Below are positions 2,315 through 16,264 of a stretch of DNA of 64,000 nucleotides, piece by piece. Made by a program: the position numbers and the translations under genes. The notes beneath the pieces are model-generated. The model worked only from the letters and a program-made list of their open reading frames with translations. It had not been told where the DNA came from and did not search any database. Every line of letters starts with the position of its first letter. Positions within the stretch are counted from its first letter, which is position 1. Source of the stretch: Shigella phage ShigP1. The stretch is taken from sequence record PQ818763; one strand, given 5' to 3'.

Positions 2315-2555
2315 TCAGACCATGATTAAGCAGGTTAGCCAGCGACAAATCACCGTCAATATAGATTGATCTGAAATCATCGCGGGTAATTTCGAAATCA
2401 GCAAAGGCTAGCCAATCTTTAAGAGGCTGATATTCCATCCTGCAAAAAGTGATAACAGGCAAGATTATCTGACCATCAAGTGTATTAAACTCGATAGATT
2501 GCCCACCAACAAAACAAGAAAAGCCGTTTGATAACTTAACTTCTTTGATAGCCAT
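2289..2555 (-). CDS. Hypothetical protein
   Basis: ORF of 88 aa, co-oriented; no motif recognised. Confidence 0.3.
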   Translation of the reverse strand: MAIKEVKLSNGFSCFVGGQSIEFNTLDGQIILPVITFCRMEYQPLKDWLAFADFEITRDDFRSIYIDGDLSLANLLNHGLIGDDTNGK

Positions 2556-2580
2556 TTTTACACTCCTGAAAATAGGTTAT

Positions 2581-3453
2581 TTACTTACTAGCCTTAATAC
2601 AGTTGGCTAAACTAACGTGAACGGTATAAACAGCGTTATTAGCGTTATTGTAAACAGTGGTAGCAATCATCGACTCATTGATCGGGCCATAACTCACTAG
2701 ATTGGTTACAGCTTTAACGTCTTCGTAACGTTGTACAGTGCCAAATGTAACCATATCCGAGTCACTATCGGTGCGCTTGAGAACTAGATCATTGTTAGGC
2801 TGATTGTCTAGTGTCTTAGACTGAAAGAGAACGCCATCATTAGTTACGTTGCTAAACTTCATTTTTAATACAATAGTACTTCCATCACTATCCGCACCGT
2901 TGCAAATCATCCAACCCTTATTGATGGAACTAGAGAAGACACTAGCGGCATCAGTTGCAGGAGTAGAACTAGCGATAGCTTTATCAGAAAGAGATGTGAC
3001 CAGTGCACTAACACCGATCGCTGCAACCAGTGCATAACTTGCCAGATTAACAGACTTCATAATCTTACTTGCAACAGTAGGCTTGATTGGCTGTTTCTTG
3101 TTTTTCTTATTCCATGCTTCAACCATGACAGACAAGCGGGATAATTCAGCTTTCACATCGCGGCATGACTCAGGCCAATCCTTCTGATTCCAGCTATCTA
3201 AATTTGCTTGAATGTAGCAATTAATAGCGTCCTGCATATTGGTAAAACCGTTCTCTTTGAACGTGCTTTCATCTTCACACTGTAAAGCGTTCGCAGTAGA
3301 GTTAATGATCAAGCAAGCCAGCATTACAGAGTTTTTGAATCCTTTACGTGCACTTTCGTTTTCCATCCACGCATCAGGACTACCAACGGTTAAGCCTAAA
3401 GAGGAAAGGCTTTCGTTTGCTTTGTTCAAGTGGTTAATCGCTACTTTAGACAT
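2581..3453 (-). CDS. Hypothetical membrane protein (single central TM helix)
   Basis: ORF of 290 aa; central hydrophobic stretch VNLASYALVAAIGVSALVTSL separates two hydrophilic domains. Confidence 0.45.
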   Translation of the reverse strand: MSKVAINHLNKANESLSSLGLTVGSPDAWMENESARKGFKNSVMLACLIINSTANALQCEDESTFKENGFTNMQDAINCYIQANLDSWNQKDWPESCRDVKAELSRLSVMVEAWNKKNKKQPIKPTVASKIMKSVNLASYALVAAIGVSALVTSLSDKAIASSTPATDAASVFSSSINKGWMICNGADSDGSTIVLKMKFSNVTNDGVLFQSKTLDNQPNNDLVLKRTDSDSDMVTFGTVQRYEDVKAVTNLVSYGPINESMIATTVYNNANNAVYTVHVSLANCIKASK

Positions 3454-4236
3454 TTGATATTCCTTATGGTTGATGAAAACTACAAACTACAATCGCAACT
3501 ATATAATAAAGGAAAAGGCTGTCAACCATTTATTTTCTAACTTTCCTATAACTCACTGAAAACTAAAGGGATTTAATTTACTAAACTTTCCATACTCAGA
3601 GAATCAGCTTACTTCTTATTGTTACTTTATAACACTACGGGTAACAGACCAACAGATCAGGACAAACGGGGATACAACAACCGCAGAACAGACCACGGGG
3701 AAACATAGGCAGATAGTGCGGTAGTAATATACCACTTAAATAATTGTATAACTCAAACATCAAAGACGTTCGCTACGCTCACAAAGGCACGCTGAAAAAA
3801 GAAAAGAATAAAAGCAATTATTAAAAGAATTACAATCATCCACTTAATTAATACATATATCATTATTGCACTCATAATCATTACTATTGAAACTATTTAC
3901 ATTCAAACTATGGGGGATGTGGGCTATTACTTATGGGTATTATTAGCCTCTTATGGTAGTGCCTGTACTAGTTTATACAGTGCTAGCCTTTCTCTCACTC
4001 TTTAAAGGGGAACTAAATAAACGGGTAGCTAATGAATAGGATGGTATACACGGGGGAATAATTACGGGGAGTAGGCACGGGGAAAGGTGGAACGTGGGAA
4101 TGGGCTTAAAGGCATTGCCAATAACCCTTTTTTTAAATGAGGACTCCCCCTTTTTAGGAAACGCGCGGCGAGCGGCTAGCCCCATTCGGTCAAATCAGAA
4201 TTTTAAACTCTTATATATAAGGTTGAAAGAGAACTT

Positions 4237-4401
4237 ATGTGGAAAATTAAGTTAATCATTAAGCAATTCAAATGTGATCATGAGTACTATCGGATACGCA
4301 AAGCTTACGGGGATGAAAGAGTTCACACCCTTTATAAGTCCACTTGGAGATGTAGTAAATGTGGAAAGCTTAAACACAGCACATGGATGGATAGGCCTTA
4401 A
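4237..4401 (+). CDS. Small Cys/His-rich (zinc-ribbon-like) protein, 54 aa, absent from the ORF track
   Basis: Manual translation MWKIKLIIKQFKCDHEYYRIRKAYGDERVHTLYKSTWRCSKCGK...; C-x-H ... C-x2-C spacing; lies inside the repeat-rich leader. Confidence 0.3.
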   Translation: MWKIKLIIKQFKCDHEYYRIRKAYGDERVHTLYKSTWRCSKCGKLKHSTWMDRP

Positions 4402-4614
4402 CGTGACATGGCCTTTATGTGATAGTGCCTTAATGTGAAGTAGTCATCAAAGATGACGTCCCCTTTATGTCTTAACTTTATCAGAGGGATGTATGACAGA
4501 AGATGAATACGGTAGCTTCTCTGAAGAAGACTACGAAAATGAATACAGGTATTCTCACGGGTGTTAATGTGAGGTGGCCTTTACGGGTATGTCTTATGAT
4601 GTGCCCTTTATACT
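4328..4614. repeat. Cluster of about 6-7 short direct repeats, (G)CCYTTTATGTGA and TTAATGTGARG variants, just upstream of the late module
   Basis: Read directly: ccctttat 4328-4335; gcctttatgtga 4411-4422; gccttaatgtgaag 4427-4440; cccctttatgtc 4460-4471; gtgttaatgtgagg 4561-4574; ggcctttacggg 4576-4587; gccctttatact 4603-4614. Confidence 0.5.
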
Positions 4615-4635
4615 CTTATTCAGAGGAGAAGAATT

Positions 4636-4890
4636 ATGAATTTAGTATTAGACTTTTTATCAGAGATGGTGCCTCGGTTCAGAACGGAGACATACGCTTT
4701 CGTGGTCAACAGTGACTCTGAAGAAGGGATGGAAGCTACTTGCTTAGGCCGTCTTGTTGATTTAGATGATGAAACAGATTTCGATATTACAATTGATGTA
4801 AGTAGTTTTGGTTGGCTCTTCTTCAGAGCATTCCGCACTTACAGAAAAGAAACATACAAAGATTACAGCAAGGGAGATACAAATGAATAA
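4636..4890 (+). CDS. Acidic hypothetical protein
   Basis: ORF of 84 aa; first plus-strand gene after the non-coding region. Confidence 0.4.
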   Translation: MNLVLDFLSEMVPRFRTETYAFVVNSDSEEGMEATCLGRLVDLDDETDFDITIDVSSFGWLFFRAFRTYRKETYKDYSKGDTNE

Positions 4891-5515
4891 TTTAATCCAA
4901 GCGATGGACCTTAACGATTACAATTCACAGCTATGTCGCTCTGGTTGTAGCTTACAGCATTTAGAAACTATGGGAAATGTTTCAGGATTGGCTGTACAAG
5001 ATTTATATAGTGGAAGTATTCTTAAACCAACTATTACGGAGAAGAAAGATATGATGAGTTTAGTAGAACAATACCGTGGACTTCAAGTCGGTACTATTGG
5101 TGATAAATATGAGAACTACTACAAAGATCGCTCAAAAGTACTTGAAGAAGTTGCACGGGCTAAGCCTTCTACTCTGGAAGTAGTTGAATACGAATCTACT
5201 AAACATGATCACCTCCCTGACTATGCTCGTGCAATGATTGAGATGATTGAAGAAGCTGAATACGAAATGCTCCATGATTATATTACCTCCAAAGATGAAT
5301 GGCATCGTGATGTTAGAATCGAAGAGGATGGTACAGAAACAATTACGTGGATTCACAAGAGTGAGCTAGTAGACGACGCACTGCGAGACTACGAAAAATT
5401 TTTGGTCGACGGCTCTATTCTTTTAGAGGAAGAGAAGGGTGCAGAACTTCCGTGGGAAGGTGAGACGATTGCTCTAGGTAAGATGTTTAACCTGTCCGTT
5501 GGTGATTGTAAGTAA
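4883..5515 (+). CDS. Hypothetical protein (start moved to internal Met)
   Basis: Internal ATG at 4883 preceded by AGGGAG; overlaps the upstream stop in an ATGAATAA arrangement. Confidence 0.45.
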   Translation: MNNLIQAMDLNDYNSQLCRSGCSLQHLETMGNVSGLAVQDLYSGSILKPTITEKKDMMSLVEQYRGLQVGTIGDKYENYYKDRSKVLEEVARAKPSTLEVVEYESTKHDHLPDYARAMIEMIEEAEYEMLHDYITSKDEWHRDVRIEEDGTETITWIHKSELVDDALRDYEKFLVDGSILLEEEKGAELPWEGETIALGKMFNLSVGDCK

Positions 5516-7809: not shown

Positions 7810-10053
7810 ATGGCTAAGCAAAAATATAGTGAAGAGGTGTTGGACGAGTTACGTGTTGACCTTCAACGTCGTTTTAATTATGCTCAAGGCTACGTGGACA
7901 TGGCTGTTAAGGGCTATGCTCGTGAAGCTTGGGAATATTTCTATGGTAACTTACCTGCACCAGTAACTGCTGGCAGCTCTAGTTGGGTAGATCGTACTGT
8001 TTGGGAATCTGTTAACGGTACATTGCAAGATATTATTAACGTATTCTGTTCTGGTGATGAAGCAGTTACTTTCGTAGCTGACAACCAACAGGATTCTGAT
8101 GCTGCTGACGTAGCAACTAAATTAGTTAACCAAATTCTTCTGCGTGATAATCCGGGATACAATATTATCTCTTCTGCTGCACAAGAATGTCTGGTTACTC
8201 GTAACTCTTTTATCAAGTATTATTGGGATGAACAAACTTCTACTCAAACTGAAGAAGCTGAAGGTGTACCACCGGAAGCATTGGCTGCATATGTTCAGGG
8301 ATTAGAAGCTGGTGGACTCAAGAATCTGGAAATCTTCACTGAAGAAAATGAAGATGGTACAGTAGATGTTAAAGTTACTTACGAACAAACCGTTAAACGT
8401 GTGAAAGTTGAATATGTTCCTTCAGAGCAAATCTTTGTTGACGAACATGCTACCTCTTTTGCAGATGCACAATACTTCTGTCATCGTGTACGTCGTTCTA
8501 AAGAAGATCTGGTTGCTATGGGATTCCCTAAAGATGAGATTGAAGCATTTAACGACTGGACAGATACAATGGATACCACTCAATCTACAGTTGCTTGGTC
8601 TCGTACTGACTGGCGTCAGGATATTGATGCTGATATTGGTACAGATACCGAAGATATCGCTTCTATGGTTTGGGTTTATGAGCACTATATTCGTACTGGT
8701 GTTCTAGATAAGAATAAAGAGTCTAAACTCTATCAGGTTATTCAAGCTGGTGAGCATATCCTTCACACTGAAGAAGTAACTCACATTCCGTTTGTAACCT
8801 TCTGCCCGTATCCGATTCCGGGTTCCTTCTATGGTCAATCGGTCTATGACATTACGAAAGATATTCAAGATTTACGTACCGCGTTAGTTCGTGGTTATAT
8901 TGATAACGTCAACAATGCTAACTATGGTCGATACAAGGCTCTTGTTGGTGCATACGACCGTCGCTCTCTGCTTGATAACCGTCCCGGTGGAGTGGTTGAA
9001 ATGGAACGTCAGGACGCTATTGACCTGTTCCCATACCATAACCTACCTCAAGGTATTGACGGCCTCCTAGGCATGTCTGAGGAGCTTAAAGAGACACGTA
9101 CAGGTGTAACCAAACTAGGCATGGGTATCAACCCTGATGTGTTTAAGAATGATAACGCTTATGCAACCGTAGGCTTGATGATGAATGCTGCACAGAACCG
9201 TCTCCGTATGGTATGTCGTAACATTGCTCACAATGGTATGGTTGAATTGATGCGTGGTATTTACAACCTTATCAGAGAAAATGGTGAAGTTCCTATCGAG
9301 GTACAAACCCCTCGTGGTATGATTCAGGTAAATCCAAAACAATTACCAGCTCGTCACAATCTTCAAGTTGTTGTAGCTATCTCTCCTAACGAGAAAGCAG
9401 AACGTGCACAGAAACTGATTAGCTTGAAACAGCTGATTGCAGCAGATGCACAGTTAGCACCTCTCTTTGGTTTGGAGCAAGACCGTTACATGACTGCACA
9501 GATCTTTGAGTTGATGGGTATTAAAGATACTCATAAATATCTTCTGCCTCTGGAACAGTATCAGCCTCCAGAACCTTCTCCGATGGAAATCCTCCAGCTC
9601 GAGATGACTAAAGCACAGGTTGAGAACGTACAGGCTTCTTCTCAGAAGATGATTGCTGATGCATTCGACCAACGTGAACGTACTACATTCGAACAGCAGA
9701 AAGCTGCGGATGAATTAAGTCTACGTCAGGAAGAGTTGCAATTCAAGCAAGAAAATGCAGCAGATGCAATGACTCTGGAAAACCGTAAAGAAGATAACAA
9801 TGCTACTCTGGAACAAGCTAAGCACAAGTTAGCTCTTATGCAACAGCAGGTCCGTCAGTATGAATCTGTACTGAAAGAATTGCAGATGGTTATGTCTCAT
9901 CAGGTAGACCAAGAGAAGATTGTTCAGCAAGCTCGTGTTCAGGATAAAACTTTGGAACTCCAAAAGAAAGAAGCTAATGTAACTAAGAAAGAGCAACAAG
10001 CTTCTCTCAAAGATTCACGGATTCCAGGCAAACGTCTTGGAAGTAAAAACTAA
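7810..10053 (+). CDS. Portal protein
   Basis: 747 aa, directly downstream of terL and upstream of scaffold/capsid; SD GGGAGAG before the ATG. Assigned by synteny and size. Confidence 0.7.
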   Translation: MAKQKYSEEVLDELRVDLQRRFNYAQGYVDMAVKGYAREAWEYFYGNLPAPVTAGSSSWVDRTVWESVNGTLQDIINVFCSGDEAVTFVADNQQDSDAADVATKLVNQILLRDNPGYNIISSAAQECLVTRNSFIKYYWDEQTSTQTEEAEGVPPEALAAYVQGLEAGGLKNLEIFTEENEDGTVDVKVTYEQTVKRVKVEYVPSEQIFVDEHATSFADAQYFCHRVRRSKEDLVAMGFPKDEIEAFNDWTDTMDTTQSTVAWSRTDWRQDIDADIGTDTEDIASMVWVYEHYIRTGVLDKNKESKLYQVIQAGEHILHTEEVTHIPFVTFCPYPIPGSFYGQSVYDITKDIQDLRTALVRGYIDNVNNANYGRYKALVGAYDRRSLLDNRPGGVVEMERQDAIDLFPYHNLPQGIDGLLGMSEELKETRTGVTKLGMGINPDVFKNDNAYATVGLMMNAAQNRLRMVCRNIAHNGMVELMRGIYNLIRENGEVPIEVQTPRGMIQVNPKQLPARHNLQVVVAISPNEKAERAQKLISLKQLIAADAQLAPLFGLEQDRYMTAQIFELMGIKDTHKYLLPLEQYQPPEPSPMEILQLEMTKAQVENVQASSQKMIADAFDQRERTTFEQQKAADELSLRQEELQFKQENAADAMTLENRKEDNNATLEQAKHKLALMQQQVRQYESVLKELQMVMSHQVDQEKIVQQARVQDKTLELQKKEANVTKKEQQASLKDSRIPGKRLGSKN

Positions 10054-10062
10054 GGACGTCGA

Positions 10063-10299
10063 ATGAACATTAGACATCAATTTAATAAAGAGCACGCCGC
10101 CGCTTTGGCGGCTCTCAACCTTAACGGCAGTCTTGACGCAGCATTAGAGGCATTGAAAGAAAGACTCATGACAGAGATAGTTCAAACAGAACCTCATGAG
10201 AATAAGAAACGCGAAGATTGTTATCAAAAGTATAAAATGGTTGGTAGCTTAAAAGAGGTCATAAAAGCTGCTATCAATAGTGCAGGAGATGTTTCATAA
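10063..10299 (+). CDS. Small hypothetical protein
   Basis: 78-aa ORF with SD, between portal and scaffold. Confidence 0.45.
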   Translation: MNIRHQFNKEHAAALAALNLNGSLDAALEALKERLMTEIVQTEPHENKKREDCYQKYKMVGSLKEVIKAAINSAGDVS

Positions 10300-11375
10300 T
10301 GCCACAAGATAATTATATTGACCCGAACGATTTTAAATCTTTCCTCCAACTGGATGACCTGAAAGGTTCTTTCAAAGAAGAACTCGGTCGATTAGAATCT
10401 GAACAAGAACCAGAAGTGGACATTGACGATGAGTTCCCGGAAAAAGACGGTGACGATTTCGACTTTGATACCGACCTTCTCGGTGAAAGCGATGAGCTTA
10501 AGTTCGAAGATGAAGATGGTTGGGAAGATCGTGAAGAGGAAGGCGAAGTCGAAGAAGATGAAGACGAATCCTCTGAAGCAGAAGAACAAGAGGAAGAAGA
10601 TTCAAGCGATGCAGAGTATGAAGATGATTCTGCTGACGGTGAAGGTGAAGTCTTTGATGTAGACTACGAAACCGTTATCACCCTTCCTGATGGACGTGAG
10701 ATGACTATTGAAGAACTTTCTAATGGCTATCTTACTGGTGCTGATATGACAGAACGAGAATCAACTCTTCAGCGTCATATGGAAGCATTCGAGGAACGTG
10801 TAGTAGGTTTGAAGGATGTATTAGAACTAGCGTCTTTAGAAGCAGACCGAGTAATTGAAGATTATAACGGTTTTGATTGGGACAAGCTTGCAGTAGAAGA
10901 TCCTCAAGCATATGTTGAAAACAAACGTTTCCTAGAGAAGTACACAGCTCGCCGTCAACAGCTTGAACAGGCTCAGGTCCGTATTAAGCAGGAAGCAGCA
11001 GCTAAAGAGCAGGAAGCTTTCCAAGCCAAGAGTATTGAATGTGTTAATATTCTGAAACGCGAGATTCCAAATTGGGATGAAAACTTATATCAAAACTTAA
11101 TGCAATACGCAATTGACTTAGGTGCTACTGAAGAAGAAGTATTGAAGGAAAACCGTCCGTCTATTTTCCTAGCTCTCCATAAAGCATACCAATTTGATAA
11201 AGGTAAGCAACAGGTGATGGCTAAGATTAAACGTCCCGGTGCTCCACGCAAGGTTGTGAAGTCTGATGCTGCAAAGTCTCGCACTTCCAATAAGCCCGAC
11301 AACGCTAAGGTTGCCAAGGCATTCGCAGAGGGTCGCGTTAGTCACGAAGACGCATTCAAATTCCTCGTAGATTAA
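10299..11375 (+). CDS. Scaffolding protein (acidic, coiled-coil-like)
   Basis: 358 aa; strongly acidic N-terminal half (runs of E/D); located between portal and major capsid gene. Confidence 0.6.
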   Translation: MPQDNYIDPNDFKSFLQLDDLKGSFKEELGRLESEQEPEVDIDDEFPEKDGDDFDFDTDLLGESDELKFEDEDGWEDREEEGEVEEDEDESSEAEEQEEEDSSDAEYEDDSADGEGEVFDVDYETVITLPDGREMTIEELSNGYLTGADMTERESTLQRHMEAFEERVVGLKDVLELASLEADRVIEDYNGFDWDKLAVEDPQAYVENKRFLEKYTARRQQLEQAQVRIKQEAAAKEQEAFQAKSIECVNILKREIPNWDENLYQNLMQYAIDLGATEEEVLKENRPSIFLALHKAYQFDKGKQQVMAKIKRPGAPRKVVKSDAAKSRTSNKPDNAKVAKAFAEGRVSHEDAFKFLVD

Positions 11376-11415
11376 TCGACAAATTAATTATTAATAGTAT
11401 AGGAGCTAACATAAC

Positions 11416-12474
11416 ATGGCTAATCCAACTTTATTTGTATCGTATGACCAGAATGGTAAAAAACTTTCTTTTGCTAACTGGATTTCTGTTCTGTCCCCTC
11501 AGGATACCCCGTTCGTATCTATGACCGGTAAAGAGTCTATCAACCAGACTATCTTTAGCTGGCAGACCGATGCACTGGCAAGCGTTGACGGTAATAACGC
11601 ACACGTCGAAGGCTCTCGTGCTGAAGACGGTGAAATGAAACCGACTGTTATCAAATCTAACGTTACTCAGATTCTGCGTAAGGTTGTTCGTGTTTCTGAT
11701 ACTGCTAACACCACCGCTAACTACGGTCGTGGTCGTGAACTGATGTATCAGCTGGAGAAGAAAGGTAAAGAGATCAAGCGTGACCTCGAGAAAATCCTTC
11801 TGTCCGGTCAGGCTCGTACCGACGTTCTGGCTGACCAGTATCTGACTAACTCTGCAACTGATCCTGCTGTTGTTGGTCTGAATGACACCCATGCAGCTCG
11901 TAAGACTGGTGCATTCCAGTTCCTGTGTGCTCACGGTGGTCTGGCTGGTGGCGTTGTTGACAAGACCAAGAATGGTCCTGCTGACCCGGATACTGGTGCA
12001 GTGACTGTTAAAGTTGCACAGAATGCTTCTAACCCGACCACTAACATTGGTTTCGACGAAGCTGATATCTTTGATATGACTCTGCAACTGTATACCGCTG
12101 GTTCTGAAGCAGATATCATCATGATTAACCCGGCTCATGCTAAGATCTTCGCTGGTCTGCAAGAAAATACTCAGGGTTCACGTAAGCGTATCTTTGAGAA
12201 CACCAAGCAGTTCATCTACGAAGTTAATAGCATCACTGACCCGCTGGGCCAGAGCTACAAAATCATCGTTAACCGTTGGATGCCTACCGATGCAGTTTAC
12301 TTCTTCCGTAGCGCTGACTGGACTCAGATGGTTCTGCGTGCTCCGAAACGTACTGAACTAGCAAAAGATGGTTCTTACGAGAAGTGGATGATTGAAATGG
12401 AAGTTGGTCTGCGTCACCGCAACCCGTATGCTTCCGGCGTCCTGTTCACTGCTGCGGGAAAGGTGGCGGCGTAA
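11416..12474 (+). CDS. Major capsid protein
   Basis: 352 aa; follows the scaffold gene; strong SD (AGGAG); codon usage biased to T/C-ending codons typical of a highly expressed gene. Assigned by synteny. Confidence 0.7.
   Translation: MANPTLFVSYDQNGKKLSFANWISVLSPQDTPFVSMTGKESINQTIFSWQTDALASVDGNNAHVEGSRAEDGEMKPTVIKSNVTQILRKVVRVSDTANTTANYGRGRELMYQLEKKGKEIKRDLEKILLSGQARTDVLADQYLTNSATDPAVVGLNDTHAARKTGAFQFLCAHGGLAGGVVDKTKNGPADPDTGAVTVKVAQNASNPTTNIGFDEADIFDMTLQLYTAGSEADIIMINPAHAKIFAGLQENTQGSRKRIFENTKQFIYEVNSITDPLGQSYKIIVNRWMPTDAVYFFRSADWTQMVLRAPKRTELAKDGSYEKWMIEMEVGLRHRNPYASGVLFTAAGKVAA
12456..12462 (+). other. Candidate -1 programmed ribosomal frameshift site, slippery heptamer G_GGA_AAG
   Basis: In the capsid zero frame the codons are gcG GGA AAG, three codons before the stop; the -1 frame is open from 12396 and continues into the Big_2 ORF ending 12998. 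Confidence 0.55.
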
Positions 12475-12485
12475 CAGTAGACAGT

Positions 12486-12998
12486 GTGACTGTTAGCCCT
12501 GCGTCTTTAGCAAGTCTAGAGACAGGGGCTACTCGGCAGTTCACTGCAAGCGCGGAGAAAAGTGATGGTTCTACCGAAACAACTGGCTTTACTTGGTCAG
12601 TGACAGGGGGTGGTTCTATCACTCAGTCGGGTTTGTATACTGCTCCGAGTGCGTCTCAATCCACTGATGTATCCATTACTGCAACTTTAGAAGGTGTTTC
12701 TGGTACAGCAACCATTTCTGAAATTGTTGCTCCTGCTCCTACTATTGTAGCTAAGGGTCCAATTACGGGTAAAACTGGTGGTTCCTCCACTAATTTCACT
12801 ACCATGTTTACTGTAACTAACTCTGCTGCTGCGGATTACACGTTTGTTGTAACTCCTACAGAAGCCGGTACAGTAAGCGCCGCTGGTGCGTTAACCTTAG
12901 ATGCTGCTGCAAGTGGCGAAGTTACTGTTCAAGCAAGTTTGACAGCTGACCCGTCCATCAATGCAACATGCACTTTTACTGGTGTAACACCTACTTAA
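12486..12998 (+). CDS. Ig-like (Big_2) domain ORF, probably expressed as a C-terminal extension of the capsid protein by -1 frameshift
   Basis: Big_2-like pattern (VSPASLASLETGATRQFTASAE...TWSVTGGGSITQSGLYTAP); the only in-frame start is a GTG with no well-placed SD; the frame is contiguous with the slippery site. Confidence 0.5.
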   Translation: MTVSPASLASLETGATRQFTASAEKSDGSTETTGFTWSVTGGGSITQSGLYTAPSASQSTDVSITATLEGVSGTATISEIVAPAPTIVAKGPITGKTGGSSTNFTTMFTVTNSAAADYTFVVTPTEAGTVSAAGALTLDAAASGEVTVQASLTADPSINATCTFTGVTPT

Positions 12999-13005
12999 AA
13001 CTAGA

Positions 13006-13031
13006 CCCTGCCTTCGGGCGGGGTTTTTTCG
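13006..13031 (+). terminator. Rho-independent terminator (ccctgcc-UUCG-ggcgggg followed by TTTTTT)
   Basis: Hairpin with a UUCG loop and T-run, read directly downstream of the capsid/Big_2 unit. Confidence 0.7.
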
Positions 13032-13099
13032 TTTTAAGACCTATACAAGCTAGTGTGTAATGTATATTCTTTGTCTACATATAACAAGGAGGACAACCT

Positions 13100-13852
13100 A
13101 TGGCAATGCCAGATGTTCAATACCCCATCAATACCTATGGGTGGCTAAAGAAGGCCGTGGCCCTCTGGGCAGATAGGGACGATGACGAATTTGTTAATCA
13201 AATTCCAAACTTTATTAACTTTGCAGAGAAAGAGATTTATCGTAACTTACGTATTCCTCCTCTGGAAAAAGAAGTGTATTTAGATATTAAAGATGGAGTA
13301 GCTTATATTCCTCCTGATTACCTAGAAGCTCAATGGATGATGAGAGCCAAAGATGGTACAATCTTCCAAGTAACATCTCCTGAAGAGATTAGCTATCGTA
13401 GACAGCATGGAACAATTAACCCATCTCACTGGAATAACCAACCTGTCAACTTTGCTCGTTTCGGTAGTCGTTTCATTTTCTACCCTAGCATCGAAGCAGA
13501 TACTCCGTACTACCCTGATGATGGAAGCCCTTTGATTCCAGCAGAAAACTCAGTGATTCTTAGCTATTATGCAGACCCACCGGAATTCCATGAAGATACA
13601 GATACTAGTACTATTCTTACTATAGCACCAGAACTTCTTCTGTACTTCACCCTACGTCATGCTTGTCTCTTTGTTCAAGATGATAATGGTGTTCAGAAAT
13701 GGTCAGCATTAGGAAAAGCTATCCTTGATGAAATGGTAGAACAGAATAAGAAACAAGAGTACTCAGGTTCACCTATCGCAATTCCGAATAACATGACTCG
13801 ACTTCAGAGCAGCCTGCCTGATATTTATGGTATTCGTACTTCTCGTGTATAA
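13100..13852 (+). CDS. Virion structural protein (adaptor or tail component), function unassigned
   Basis: 250 aa with SD (AAGGAGG); sits between the capsid and tail fibre genes. Confidence 0.4.
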   Translation: MAMPDVQYPINTYGWLKKAVALWADRDDDEFVNQIPNFINFAEKEIYRNLRIPPLEKEVYLDIKDGVAYIPPDYLEAQWMMRAKDGTIFQVTSPEEISYRRQHGTINPSHWNNQPVNFARFGSRFIFYPSIEADTPYYPDDGSPLIPAENSVILSYYADPPEFHEDTDTSTILTIAPELLLYFTLRHACLFVQDDNGVQKWSALGKAILDEMVEQNKKQEYSGSPIAIPNNMTRLQSSLPDIYGIRTSRV

Positions 13853-13861
13853 GGAGATAAT

Positions 13862-16264
13862 ATGATCGTTTATAATAACCAAGCACCTGATGCAGTGAAT
13901 AACGTTGGGCAGTTTGGTGCTACTGAAGGCTCTATCGGGGCTTATAAGCAAGCAGCAGAATATGCAGCTGACTCCAAATATTGGGCACTGTTAGCAGAAT
14001 CTAAGTTTGGTACAATTGATGATTTAATCGCTGAAGTAGAACGTCTATATCAACAGGGTGTTCTGATGAAGCAGGATATTGAAGATCTTAAGCAGGATTT
14101 TAAGGATCAAGATGCTCGTTTGATGACTCTGATTGCCCAAACCAACGCAGCAGTATCGGATGCTAATAATGCCGTTGCTCTCATTAACCAAAAACTTATT
14201 GAAGTCCAGAATCAGCTTGATGTTCTGTTAGGAATGTCTGTTGATGTAACAACTCTCCCTCCGGGAACTCCGGCTACTGGCTCTTTTAATCCTAACACTG
14301 GTGTAATCTCTTTAGGTATTCCAGAAGGTGATCCCGGAAAAGATGGTTCTGTTAAGGATTTGGATACAGCACCTACAGGTGTTCCAGAGCTAGGTGATTT
14401 AGGTTTCTATGTTGACAAAGATGACAATACCGTCCACAAAACTACTCTAGATAACATTGCTAATTTAATCCCATCTGTTCGTTCTGTCTCTATTAACGGC
14501 GGTCCAGCTCTTGATGGAGAGGTTGCTCTAACACTTAACAAAGAGACGGTAGGTTTAGGGAATGTTCTGAACGTTGCTCAGTACAGTCGTCAAGAGATTA
14601 ATGACAAGTTTGATAAAACCACCAAGACATATCAATCTAAAGCAGAAGCTGATGCTGACGCTCAGTATCGCCAAGTTGGTGAGAAGGTCTTAGTTTGGGC
14701 AGCTACTAAGTATGAATTTTATACTGTTGCTGCTAACAAAACATTAACTCCTGTTAAAACTGAAGGTAGAATTCTTACTGTTAATTCCCGTTCTCCAGAC
14801 TCCAGTGGTAATATTGACATTACCATTCCAACAGGAAACCCTTCTCTATATCTTGGTGAGATGGTAATGTTCCCTTATGACCCAACGAAGAATATCTCCT
14901 ATCCGGGCGTTCTTCCAGCCGATGGTCGTCTAGTGTCTAAAGAGTCTGCTTCAGATTTAGGCCCATCCCTTGTCAGTGGACAACTTCCTGTTGTTTCTGA
15001 AACTGAATGGCAAGCAGGGGCTAAACAATACTTCTCTTGGGGTAAATTGGCAGATGGTATTACCGATGCAGATTCTACTAATTTTATCAACATTCGACTT
15101 CCTGATTGGACTGGAGGGGAGGCAATAAGAGCACCAGATTCTGATAAAGACTCTCAGTACAATGGGTCTGTACAGGCTCAGAAACCTTATGTTGTTACTG
15201 TAAATAACCAAGCTCCTGATGAGATTACTGGTAATGTGAACATCTCCAGATCAATTTTAGGTGCTGCCGCTTCTGGTACAAACTCTGATATAACATCCCT
15301 CACGGGACTCACTACAGCACTGTCTGTCACACAAGGAGGCACTGGAGCTAAAGACGCTGCTAGTGCTCGTTCTAATCTAGGTCTNNNNNNNNNNNNNNNN
15401 NNNNNNNNNNNNNNNNNNNNNNNNNNNNNNNNNNNNNNNNNNNNNNNNNNNNNNNNNNNNNNNNNNNNNNNNNNNNNNNNTGCTGCTAGTGCTCGTTCTA
15501 ATCTAGGGTTGGGAAGTGTTTCCACTCTGGATAATGTACCTATTGCTAATGGTGGGACAGGGGCTGGAGATGCTGCTGGTGCAAGGTTCAATATTGGAGC
15601 GCTAAGTAACACCCCAGCAAATTCAGGCGTAGGTGGTACTGGGGATCGTGTCCAACATGCCTCCGGGAACGGCCTGTTTACTTTAGACTTGTTTAACTGC
15701 TACTGGTATATGCAGCCAGAGGATACTAACTTCTGGATTGCCCACGGTGTGTCATATGCAGGGTCTGGTGGCGAAGCCTCACAATACGGTCGCATATCTT
15801 ACGCAATAAAGATTGCAGACGGAACAATAAAATATGTCCATTGTCTTACAAACAAAAACACCACTGTTGATGTAAACGGATTTATCAAAGCGGCATCTCC
15901 GGTAGTTCATATTTACTCCGACGGTCGATATGAGACGAACGAGGAATCTGAGGGGGTTAATGTCATTCGGCAAGGTGTTGGTGAGTACTTGATTACCGGT
16001 TGCCTTGGCTTAAACGCAGATGCAAAATGGGGAGGCATTGACGGCGGCTTTGAAATCCCTACTGACCGCAACAAACAACCTAGGGTTTGGCTGGACTATG
16101 AGATTAAAGAAGATGGTTCTATTTTAGTTAAAACCCATCACAGAACCCATCCAACCTCTCCGGTTTTTGCTAGAAATGAGATAGAAGGTTTTTCTGACGG
16201 TGATCCTATTGATATCCCGAGTGATGCTTTTATTTCAGTTCGTGTTGAAATGCCTTCTGAGTAA
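13862..16264 (+). CDS. Tail fibre protein with phage tail-fibre repeats (GGTGA..AA.AR.NLG); interrupted by an assembly gap
   Basis: 800 aa as read; repeated motifs TQGGTGAKDAASARSNLG and NGGTGAGDAAGARFNIG; N-terminal coiled-coil region. Confidence 0.65.
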   Translation: MIVYNNQAPDAVNNVGQFGATEGSIGAYKQAAEYAADSKYWALLAESKFGTIDDLIAEVERLYQQGVLMKQDIEDLKQDFKDQDARLMTLIAQTNAAVSDANNAVALINQKLIEVQNQLDVLLGMSVDVTTLPPGTPATGSFNPNTGVISLGIPEGDPGKDGSVKDLDTAPTGVPELGDLGFYVDKDDNTVHKTTLDNIANLIPSVRSVSINGGPALDGEVALTLNKETVGLGNVLNVAQYSRQEINDKFDKTTKTYQSKAEADADAQYRQVGEKVLVWAATKYEFYTVAANKTLTPVKTEGRILTVNSRSPDSSGNIDITIPTGNPSLYLGEMVMFPYDPTKNISYPGVLPADGRLVSKESASDLGPSLVSGQLPVVSETEWQAGAKQYFSWGKLADGITDADSTNFINIRLPDWTGGEAIRAPDSDKDSQYNGSVQAQKPYVVTVNNQAPDEITGNVNISRSILGAAASGTNSDITSLTGLTTALSVTQGGTGAKDAASARSNLGXXXXXXXXXXXXXXXXXXXXXXXXXXXXXXXXXAASARSNLGLGSVSTLDNVPIANGGTGAGDAAGARFNIGALSNTPANSGVGGTGDRVQHASGNGLFTLDLFNCYWYMQPEDTNFWIAHGVSYAGSGGEASQYGRISYAIKIADGTIKYVHCLTNKNTTVDVNGFIKAASPVVHIYSDGRYETNEESEGVNVIRQGVGEYLITGCLGLNADAKWGGIDGGFEIPTDRNKQPRVWLDYEIKEDGSILVKTHHRTHPTSPVFARNEIEGFSDGDPIDIPSDAFISVRVEMPSE
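15385..15480. other. Run of 96 N (assembly gap) inside the tail fibre gene, flanked by an identical 24-nt repeat
   Basis: gctgctagtgctcgttctaatctagg occurs on both sides of the N-run; the frame is preserved (96 = 32 codons). Confidence 0.95.

Follow-up and report, generated by a model that had tools for sequence, protein, structure and literature searches.

Phages of the phiEco32/SU10 type encode a major capsid protein (MCP) that is described in two forms, the longer of which gains an immunoglobulin (Ig)-like extension by a -1 frameshift near the end of the MCP gene. Here we examine the corresponding region of Shigella phage ShigP1 (record PQ818763) in a stretch of 64,000 nucleotides, called the window below; our subject is the slippery heptamer at the 3' end of the ShigP1 MCP gene and the Ig-like open reading frame (ORF) that follows. 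The capsid -1 frameshift is a known feature of this phage genus, Kuravirus, and is not new. For SU10, Mirzaei et al. (2014, PMC4281155) pointed to GGGAAAG in coding sequence (CDS) 9 and to a fusion, 'as in phage phiEco32', with CDS10, which is Ig-like. Corban et al. (2021, PMC7881722) reported the GGGAAAG signal in Privateer together with two capsid bands, detected the minor form by mass spectrometry, and stated that the product had also been observed in phiEco32 and in SU10. Short and long isoforms were then described across the Kuravirus-like group in the YF01 paper (2023, PMC9965538). In the RefSeq entry for phage Paul (NC_070992) the gene is given as a joined CDS, annotated 'Frameshift at GGGAAAG; Frameshift in PhiEco32 major capsid protein product as well (PMID: 18294652)'. 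Two further papers (PMC10386132 and PMC13370021) hold nothing on the Kuravirus capsid frameshift. Instead of a joined CDS, most GenBank and RefSeq records of these phages show an 'Ig domain containing protein' or a 'hypothetical protein' that stands by itself, its start chosen arbitrarily.

The ShigP1 window is part of a Kuravirus genome, that is, of a prolate podophage of E. coli. A nucleotide search with the 1583 bases from 11416 to 12998 matched 125 phage records, with identities of 99.5% to PH444, 99.3% to EK5, 98.4% to phiEco32 and 98.0% to SU10. The MCP falls in the Pfam family SU10_MCP (PF17236, E 9e-77). Over its 352 aa it shares about 99% identity with SU10 gp9, for which a structure within the prolate head is available (PDB 7Z45 and related entries). 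The genes run in the order portal (7810-10053), a small ORF, scaffold (10299-11375), MCP, the Ig-like ORF, a terminator, an adaptor-like gene (13100-13852) and a tail fibre, and this order, like the MCP family, matches the capsid modules annotated in SU10, phiEco32 and Paul. The described Kuravirus frameshifts (phiEco32 gp11/gp11-12, SU10 gp9/gp9-10, Paul gp009/gp010 and YF01 gp8) have the same heptamer, codon, Ig extension and terminator as ShigP1. Nothing material differs, except that the ShigP1 extension is of the short type and that its -1 frame is intact, unlike that of the SU10 record. We propose that ShigP1 very probably makes the predicted long capsid isoform by -1 frameshifting at its heptamer.

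The slippery heptamer of the ShigP1 capsid gene

Coordinates of the features discussed are collected in Table 1. The zero frame at the site reads ...ACT GCT GC[G GGA AAG] GTG GCG GCG TAA, the first G of the heptamer being the third base of codon 347 (GCG), and three sense codons separate the heptamer from the MCP stop. The -1 frame is open from 12396, just after a TGA at 12393-12395, to the TAA at 12996-12998. A slip would give a predicted fusion of 349 + 178 = 527 aa and 55.6 kDa, as against 352 aa and 38.7 kDa for the zero-frame product. These points had been put forward in an original prediction made from the letters of the window, which placed G_GGA_AAG three codons before the capsid stop, saw the -1 frame open from 12396 to 12998 and running 178 codons into a Big_2 domain, and expected a 527-aa fusion in place of 352 aa. 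Recomputing the register from the MCP frame, reading the sequence together with its Pfam match, and calculating the mass led us to the same results.

The bare string GGGAAAG is not enriched in the window, where it occurs nine times against an expectation of 6.9 +/- 2.3. We therefore do not rest on its frequency: the site stands out because of its register, its position and the length of its -1 ORF. In a census of X_XXY_YYZ heptamers lying in register within the 40 long ORFs of the window, 40 were found. The -1 run that follows them has a median of 5 codons and a second-longest value of 22, and it reaches 178 codons at the capsid site, the sole one of the 40 to carry a long ORF beyond its zero-frame stop.

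Conservation was examined at 21 other Kuravirus-type junctions (L001-L009, L016, L024-L032, L042) taken from GenBank phages, IMG/VR and metagenomes, with search patterns drawn from the capsid protein rather than from the heptamer. GGGAAAG was in register in every one of these (21/21). The 178-codon frame is intact in ShigP1, as is the -1 frame in the 20 other sequences besides SU10. Conservation of the -1 translation begins with the codon that directly follows the heptamer (GKGGGVTVDSVTVSP...; GKGGGVTVDSVTVSPAS / GKGSGGVTVDTITVSPSS), and the start of the extension follows the pattern GKG[GS]G?VTV[DE]S/T[VI]TVSP. Extension length varies, from 178 codons in ShigP1 (the short phiEco32 type) to 545 codons in Paul, and the YF01 long isoform is 892 aa. 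The locus shares with -1 programmed frameshift sites a heptamer in register, an open -1 frame that encodes a conserved polypeptide lacking a start of its own, and conservation of the heptamer among diverged relatives.

In the mechanism that we propose, most ribosomes would finish the MCP gene and release the 352-aa protein. A minority would slip one base back with GGA in the P site and AAG in the A site; by the established rules of -1 frameshifting, tRNA-Gly would re-pair from GGA to GGG and tRNA-Lys from AAG to AAA, both remaining fully paired, and the slipped ribosomes would read GGT GGC GGC GTA and onward to 12995. The product would be a 527-aa minor capsid protein in which a short linker rich in Gly joins the full HK97-fold body to a tandem pair of Ig-like (Big_2-type) domains. 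It would be expected to co-assemble with the short form, placing Ig-like domains on the outside of a fraction of the subunits, where their most plausible role would be weak adhesion to carbohydrate or surface material.

The lambda G/GT tail-chaperone shift uses the same heptamer, G_GGA_AAG. It differs from the ShigP1 case in serving a tail assembly chaperone and not a capsid. Because it works with no strong stimulator, the heptamer alone suffices in E. coli, and by analogy we would expect shift efficiency in ShigP1 to be low, a few per cent. The lambda rate is put at about 3.5% (PMC9965538), and the SU10 head holds 715 capsid subunits (SU10 cryo-electron microscopy [cryo-EM] study). If rates of 3.5-10% are assumed together with 715 subunits as in SU10, simple arithmetic gives some 25-70 long subunits per head.

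The Ig-like extension and how it might be translated

The extension is confidently predicted to be a folded two-domain Ig-like protein. Pfam Big_2 (PF02368) matches its residues 6-83 (E 2.1e-5, 24.8 bits against a cut-off of 22.8), so that profile and beta-sandwich together place domain 1 in that family; domain 2 has no Pfam match and is Ig-like by model only. The AlphaFold2 model, built with 22 homologues, has a mean predicted local distance difference test (pLDDT) score of 96.7 and forms two consecutive beta-sandwich domains, at about residues 5-87 and 92-178. The best Foldseek match of the model in the PDB was to the tandem Big_2 domains of Leptospira LigA (E 6e-11). Other matches included the nozzle domains of SU10, which are Ig-like, and, with a listed E of 3e-4 and 28% identity across 108 columns, the capsid protein of phi29; alignments to tandem Ig proteins covered both domains.

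A possible objection to the frameshift interpretation is that the Ig ORF is a separate gene, starting by ordinary initiation or by termination-reinitiation at the GTG at 12486 and yielding a free 170-aa (16.6 kDa) decoration protein. This is the form annotated in most database records, including phiEco32 gp12; the 11 nt from the MCP stop to the GTG are few enough that reinitiation could be permitted, and the authors of the SU10 cryo-EM study considered that gp10 may be a separate, loosely bound minor capsid protein. We nevertheless consider a separate gene improbable, for the following reasons.

First, this GTG is the first start codon anywhere in the -1 ORF and the sole one before 12804, the next ATG lying 332 nt past the MCP stop, and there is no Shine-Dalgarno (SD)-like match in the 22 nt upstream of it. 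The best anti-SD duplex 5' of the GTG has -4.8 kcal/mol and lies at -22, compared with -6.5 to -11.4 kcal/mol for five real gene starts. Second, the GTG is replaced in nine relatives, by ATA in L006 and by GTA in L007, KBNP1711 (L008), Paul, L024-L026, L032 and L042; in these nine the first start codon of the -1 ORF comes 35-332 nt past the MCP stop, within the Ig domain. Third, the eight codons between the heptamer and the GTG position are conserved at the protein level, and, SU10 aside, the stretch from heptamer to Ig domain differs in length by nothing but an in-frame insertion of 3 nt. Fourth, the database proteins for the Ig ORF use at least four different internal starts, with 13 of 21 starts within the Big_2 domain, a scatter typical of gene callers faced with an ORF that lacks its own start. 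Used as a query against database proteins, the extension retrieved only gene-caller fragments of 110-305 aa, none with an MCP domain; the in-frame MCP-Ig fusions came to light from the loci themselves. Fifth, in-frame MCP-Ig paralogues of the 7-11-like phages, described below, indicate that the domain works attached to the MCP.

The GTG is thus probably not a genuine start. That independent translation from it was unlikely had been anticipated in the original prediction, and the missing SD and the poor conservation of the GTG speak for that view; conservation, the lack of a start and the predicted fold likewise support its wider proposal of a -1 programmed frameshift adding an Ig-like C-terminal extension to the MCP. 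One part of it needs amending. A junction peptide was to be sought by mass spectrometry, but the shift point coincides with the trypsin site after K349, which leaves no tryptic peptide across the junction, and chymotrypsin or Asp-N is needed. The chymotryptic peptide predicted across the junction is TAAGKGGGVTVDSVTVSPASL. The tryptic peptide GGGVTVDSVTVSPASLASLETGATR, which is encoded 5' of the GTG, would mark read-through from the heptamer and not GTG initiation; GTG initiation would yield the N-terminal peptide (M)TVSPASLASLETGATR.

A second objection is that the extension is a decaying remnant, the long form having gone out of production or use, as in the SU10 stock that was sequenced. SU10 virions are normal, prolate and infectious with no long form, and the SU10 record has a frame-breaking insertion of 1 nt; the GC content at third codon positions (GC3) of the extension is also unlike that of the MCP gene. 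Against this stand the intact frame in ShigP1 and 20 other Kuravirus-type sequences besides SU10, and the pattern of change among 16 aligned Kuravirus-type sequences, where variability at third positions of the extension equals or exceeds that in the rest of the capsid gene, while the frame stays open and the protein alignable. The extension furthermore models as a well-packed two-domain protein, and the module has been lengthened, not lost, in Paul and YF01. Decay is on these grounds very unlikely. The last alternative, production of the long form by transcriptional (RNA polymerase) slippage, would give the same protein, and sequence alone cannot formally separate the two mechanisms, but it is extremely unlikely, since productive transcriptional slippage needs runs much longer than three bases, whereas the longest homopolymers at the site are GGG and AAA, and since a perfect tandem-tRNA heptamer kept in codon register is relevant to ribosomal slippage only.

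The extra base in the SU10 record (KM044272) lies at about 4079-4082 of L001 (about 8428-8431 of SU10), where the record reads ACTGTCTACTGTT as against AGTGT-GACTGTT. It falls 22 nt past the capsid stop and ends the -1 frame after 11 codons, and it puts the Ig ORF into the zero frame behind the capsid stop.

The base composition of the extension (12462-12995) differs from that of the capsid gene (11416-12471), with GC3 of 0.29 versus 0.46 and GC content at second positions of 0.65 versus 0.42. This contrast, and the fact that relatives differ in the length and Ig subtype of the extension, suggest that the Ig module was exchanged or acquired apart from the capsid body.

We looked for elements that might stimulate the shift and found two candidate hairpins downstream of the heptamer. 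H1, a candidate weak stimulator, begins 9 nt after the heptamer and holds the MCP stop codon. All seven of its pairs are invariant among 12 distinct sequences while its loop is variable, and since the stem never varies it offers no covariation information. H2 is extendable to 12488-12541 through pairing that excludes H1. All of its cells (100%) are paired in the 12 distinct sequences, and in two neighbouring pairs both partners change (UA/GC/AU and GC/UG): position 12506, a synonymous third position of a Ser codon, changes in step with 12520, the second base of a variable codon, as U-A, G-C or A-U by lineage. This covariation amounts to perhaps three independent events, and a partner-slide control at -1 scores about equal. 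H2 starts 33 nt after the heptamer, too far for it to be a classical stimulator alone. A different stem-loop, CUGCUGC...GCGGCGG, which encloses the heptamer, had been proposed by Mirzaei et al. (PMC4281155). It does fold, but we rejected it as a classical stimulator, its 5' arm being behind or inside a ribosome positioned on the heptamer.

Several observations weigh against frameshifting at this heptamer, some from the RNA and some from the protein. The fold of the 58 nt downstream gains no stability over shuffled sequence (z = -0.25), the 20 nt 5' of the heptamer contain no SD-like sequence, and a synonymous-site scan gave no clear dip in third-position diversity after the site. With H1 invariant and H2 33 nt away, there is no convincing stimulatory element, one being possible but unproven, and for this reason shift efficiency may be low. 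As for the protein, the fusion product of ShigP1 is predicted from the gene sequence. The frameshift in phiEco32 was reportedly described by Savalia in 2008, an account cited here at second hand. The proteomic support from SU10 is weak on closer reading: coverage was 78.1% for gp9 (23 peptides) and 50.29% for '9+10' (22 peptides; PMC4281155), which corresponds to about 275 residues for gp9 and about 265 for '9+10', so the '9+10' entry may hold no Ig-domain peptides and gp9 peptides alone can explain it. Cryo-EM and gel electrophoresis (SDS-PAGE) of SU10 gave neither a long isoform nor extra density (PMC9965538; SU10 cryo-EM study). This absence fits the 1-nt insertion that closes the -1 frame, an insertion noted by the YF01 authors (PMC9965538). 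SU10 particles are prolate and infectious with no long form, which shows that the extension is dispensable for building them in the laboratory.

Other proposed routes to an Ig-tagged capsid protein

Privateer and J3S are phiEco32-like prolate podophages outside Kuravirus. Like ShigP1 they have GGGAAAG at the MCP end and an Ig-like -1 extension; they differ in that the heptamer abuts the stop and that the extension is of other Ig subtypes (I-set plus Big_2), not alignable as a whole. In Proteus phage J3S, whose MCP shows 57% identity, the end of the gene reads GGGAAAG TAA. The -1 extension there spans 169 codons, comprises I-set and Big_2 domains, and lacks any start codon over its first 179 nt. 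More distant relatives, with MCP identities of 49-55%, have other canonical heptamers. Metagenomic L038 (49% identity) has C_CCA_AAA at 4038-4044, 3 nt before the MCP stop, and a -1 extension of 213 codons that looks Ig-like by its sequence pattern. L015 has A_AAA_AAG at 4421-4427, again 3 nt before the MCP stop, followed by a non-Ig -1 tail of 42 codons, rich in Lys, Pro and Val, and then a terminator.

Phages of the Aeromonas group (L010-L013, L020 [LAh_9, NC_048776], L033, L034 and L039) have no canonical heptamer in the last 12 nt of the MCP gene. They share a conserved zero-frame end, CUG/UUG AAG GUA AAG (GCG/CCC) UAA, around which the -1 frame is open for 61 nt upstream and 266-509 nt downstream. 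Immediately beyond the stop codon this frame encodes Big_2 or I-set, and it offers no start codon until a TTG or GTG 44 nt downstream, inside the domain. To judge by these sequences, the Lahexavirus-like phages of Aeromonas probably use an unannotated, non-canonical -1 shift on G_GUA_AAG, with A-site slippage on A_AAG; the predicted junction would read ...LKV/EGK-GVSAPTGVTVSPATN. The LAh_9 record, the one annotated record inspected, gives just a 75-aa 'tail protein' at the Ig region, and the LAh phage paper (PMC7033617) makes no mention of a frameshift.

In the 7-11-like prolate podophages the capsid gene occurs as two paralogues in tandem, one short (312-314 aa) and the other long (585-778 aa); two examples are given in Table 1. 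The long paralogue carries Big_2 domains joined in frame to its SU10_MCP domain at the corresponding C-terminal point, which shows independently that the Ig module works while covalently attached to the capsid protein. Metagenomic contig L035 likewise has a short MCP and an adjoining MCP-Big_2 paralogue; contig L043 has a similar 3' end and probably the same arrangement, although the contig is cut and the MCP start is outside it. Gene duplication seems to replace frameshifting in the 7-11-like phages as the means of making a minor Ig-tagged subunit, and we found no published statement to that effect. We tentatively raise the possibility, which we ourselves regard as doubtful, that a low dose of Ig-tagged subunit is an ancestral need of this MCP family, met by at least three heptamers, the G_GUA_AAG site or gene duplication, and that the Kuravirus hairpins at 12472-12529 may tune the rate.

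Outside this family, the 10A/10B capsid proteins of T7, T3 and K1F also involve a -1 shift near the MCP 3' end and a longer minor protein that co-assembles, at about 10% according to the literature. T7 uses a slip site different from G_GGA_AAG, and its 10B tail is short. The MCP of the T7-type phages belongs to another Pfam family than the SU10_MCP of ShigP1; the likeness is one of function and not of membership. In phi29 gp8 and T4 Hoc, as expected for ShigP1, an Ig domain (Big_2-type) is displayed on the capsid surface. The domain is on every subunit in phi29, and Hoc is a separate decoration protein, whereas in ShigP1 the dose would be set by recoding.

The practical gain lies first in annotation, where a joined 527-aa minor capsid CDS would be the correct product in these E. 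coli phages, which are therapeutic candidates. A prolate capsid bearing Ig-like domains in an amount fixed by recoding would be relevant to ideas on the adherence of phages to mucus or surfaces, and the shift site to capsid display of the kind practised with T7 and K1F 10B. To what had been published we add, modestly, the conserved pair of hairpins, the critique of the SU10 evidence, the trypsin cut at the junction, and the survey of alternative routes (heptamers, the possible Aeromonas site and duplication).

Features around the capsid genes

The intrinsic terminator that closes the capsid transcription unit sits directly 3' of the Ig extension, not 3' of the 352-aa ORF, and the SU10 and Paul annotations place a terminator at the equivalent position.

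Table 1. Positions of the features discussed, in the ShigP1 window unless another sequence is named
Feature	Sequence	Position	Strand	Remarks
SD of the MCP gene, AGGAG	ShigP1	11401..11405	+	10 nt 5' of the ATG; anti-SD duplex -6.5 kcal/mol
MCP gene, zero-frame product of 352 aa (38.7 kDa)	ShigP1	11416..12474	+	HK97 fold; stop TAA 12472-12474
Slippery heptamer G_GGA_AAG	ShigP1	12456..12462	+	X_XXY_YYZ register, computed from the MCP frame
-1 extension, 178 codons and TAA	ShigP1	12462..12998	+	Counted from the re-read G at 12462
Hairpin H1 (candidate weak stimulator)	ShigP1	12472..12495	+	7-bp stem UAACAGU/ACUGUUA (12472-12478 with 12489-12495), 10-nt loop
Ig-like domain 1 (Big_2), extension residues about 6-87	ShigP1	12477..12722	+	Pfam and model (strands E6-E85)
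GTG annotated as start of a separate 'Ig domain protein' (phiEco32 gp12)	ShigP1	12486..12488	+	No SD; not conserved
Hairpin H2 core, 10 bp	ShigP1	12496..12529	+	12496-12507 with 12519-12529; RNAalifold consensus
Ig-like domain 2, extension residues about 92-178	ShigP1	12735..12995	+	Model strands E94-E176, pLDDT 96-98
Intrinsic terminator	ShigP1	13003..13036	+	10-bp stem, 6 GC pairs, T-run; closes the capsid transcription unit
Tandem capsid paralogues	L019 (Salmonella phage SeKF_80, OR863363)	2484-3422 and 3501-5270
Tandem capsid paralogues	L021 (phage PKM.Lu.22.1)	3501-4445 and 4522-6858

A tRNA scan of the whole window found no tRNA gene. Within the 800-aa tail-fibre gene (13862-16264) there is a run of 96 N at 15385-15480, with the peptide motif AASARSNLG on both sides; the run looks like an assembly gap, or masking, in a repeated segment. 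Opposite the capsid gene, the minus strand has a 243-aa antisense ORF at 11431-12162 with a TTG start, which is most likely a by-product of the codon bias of the capsid gene.

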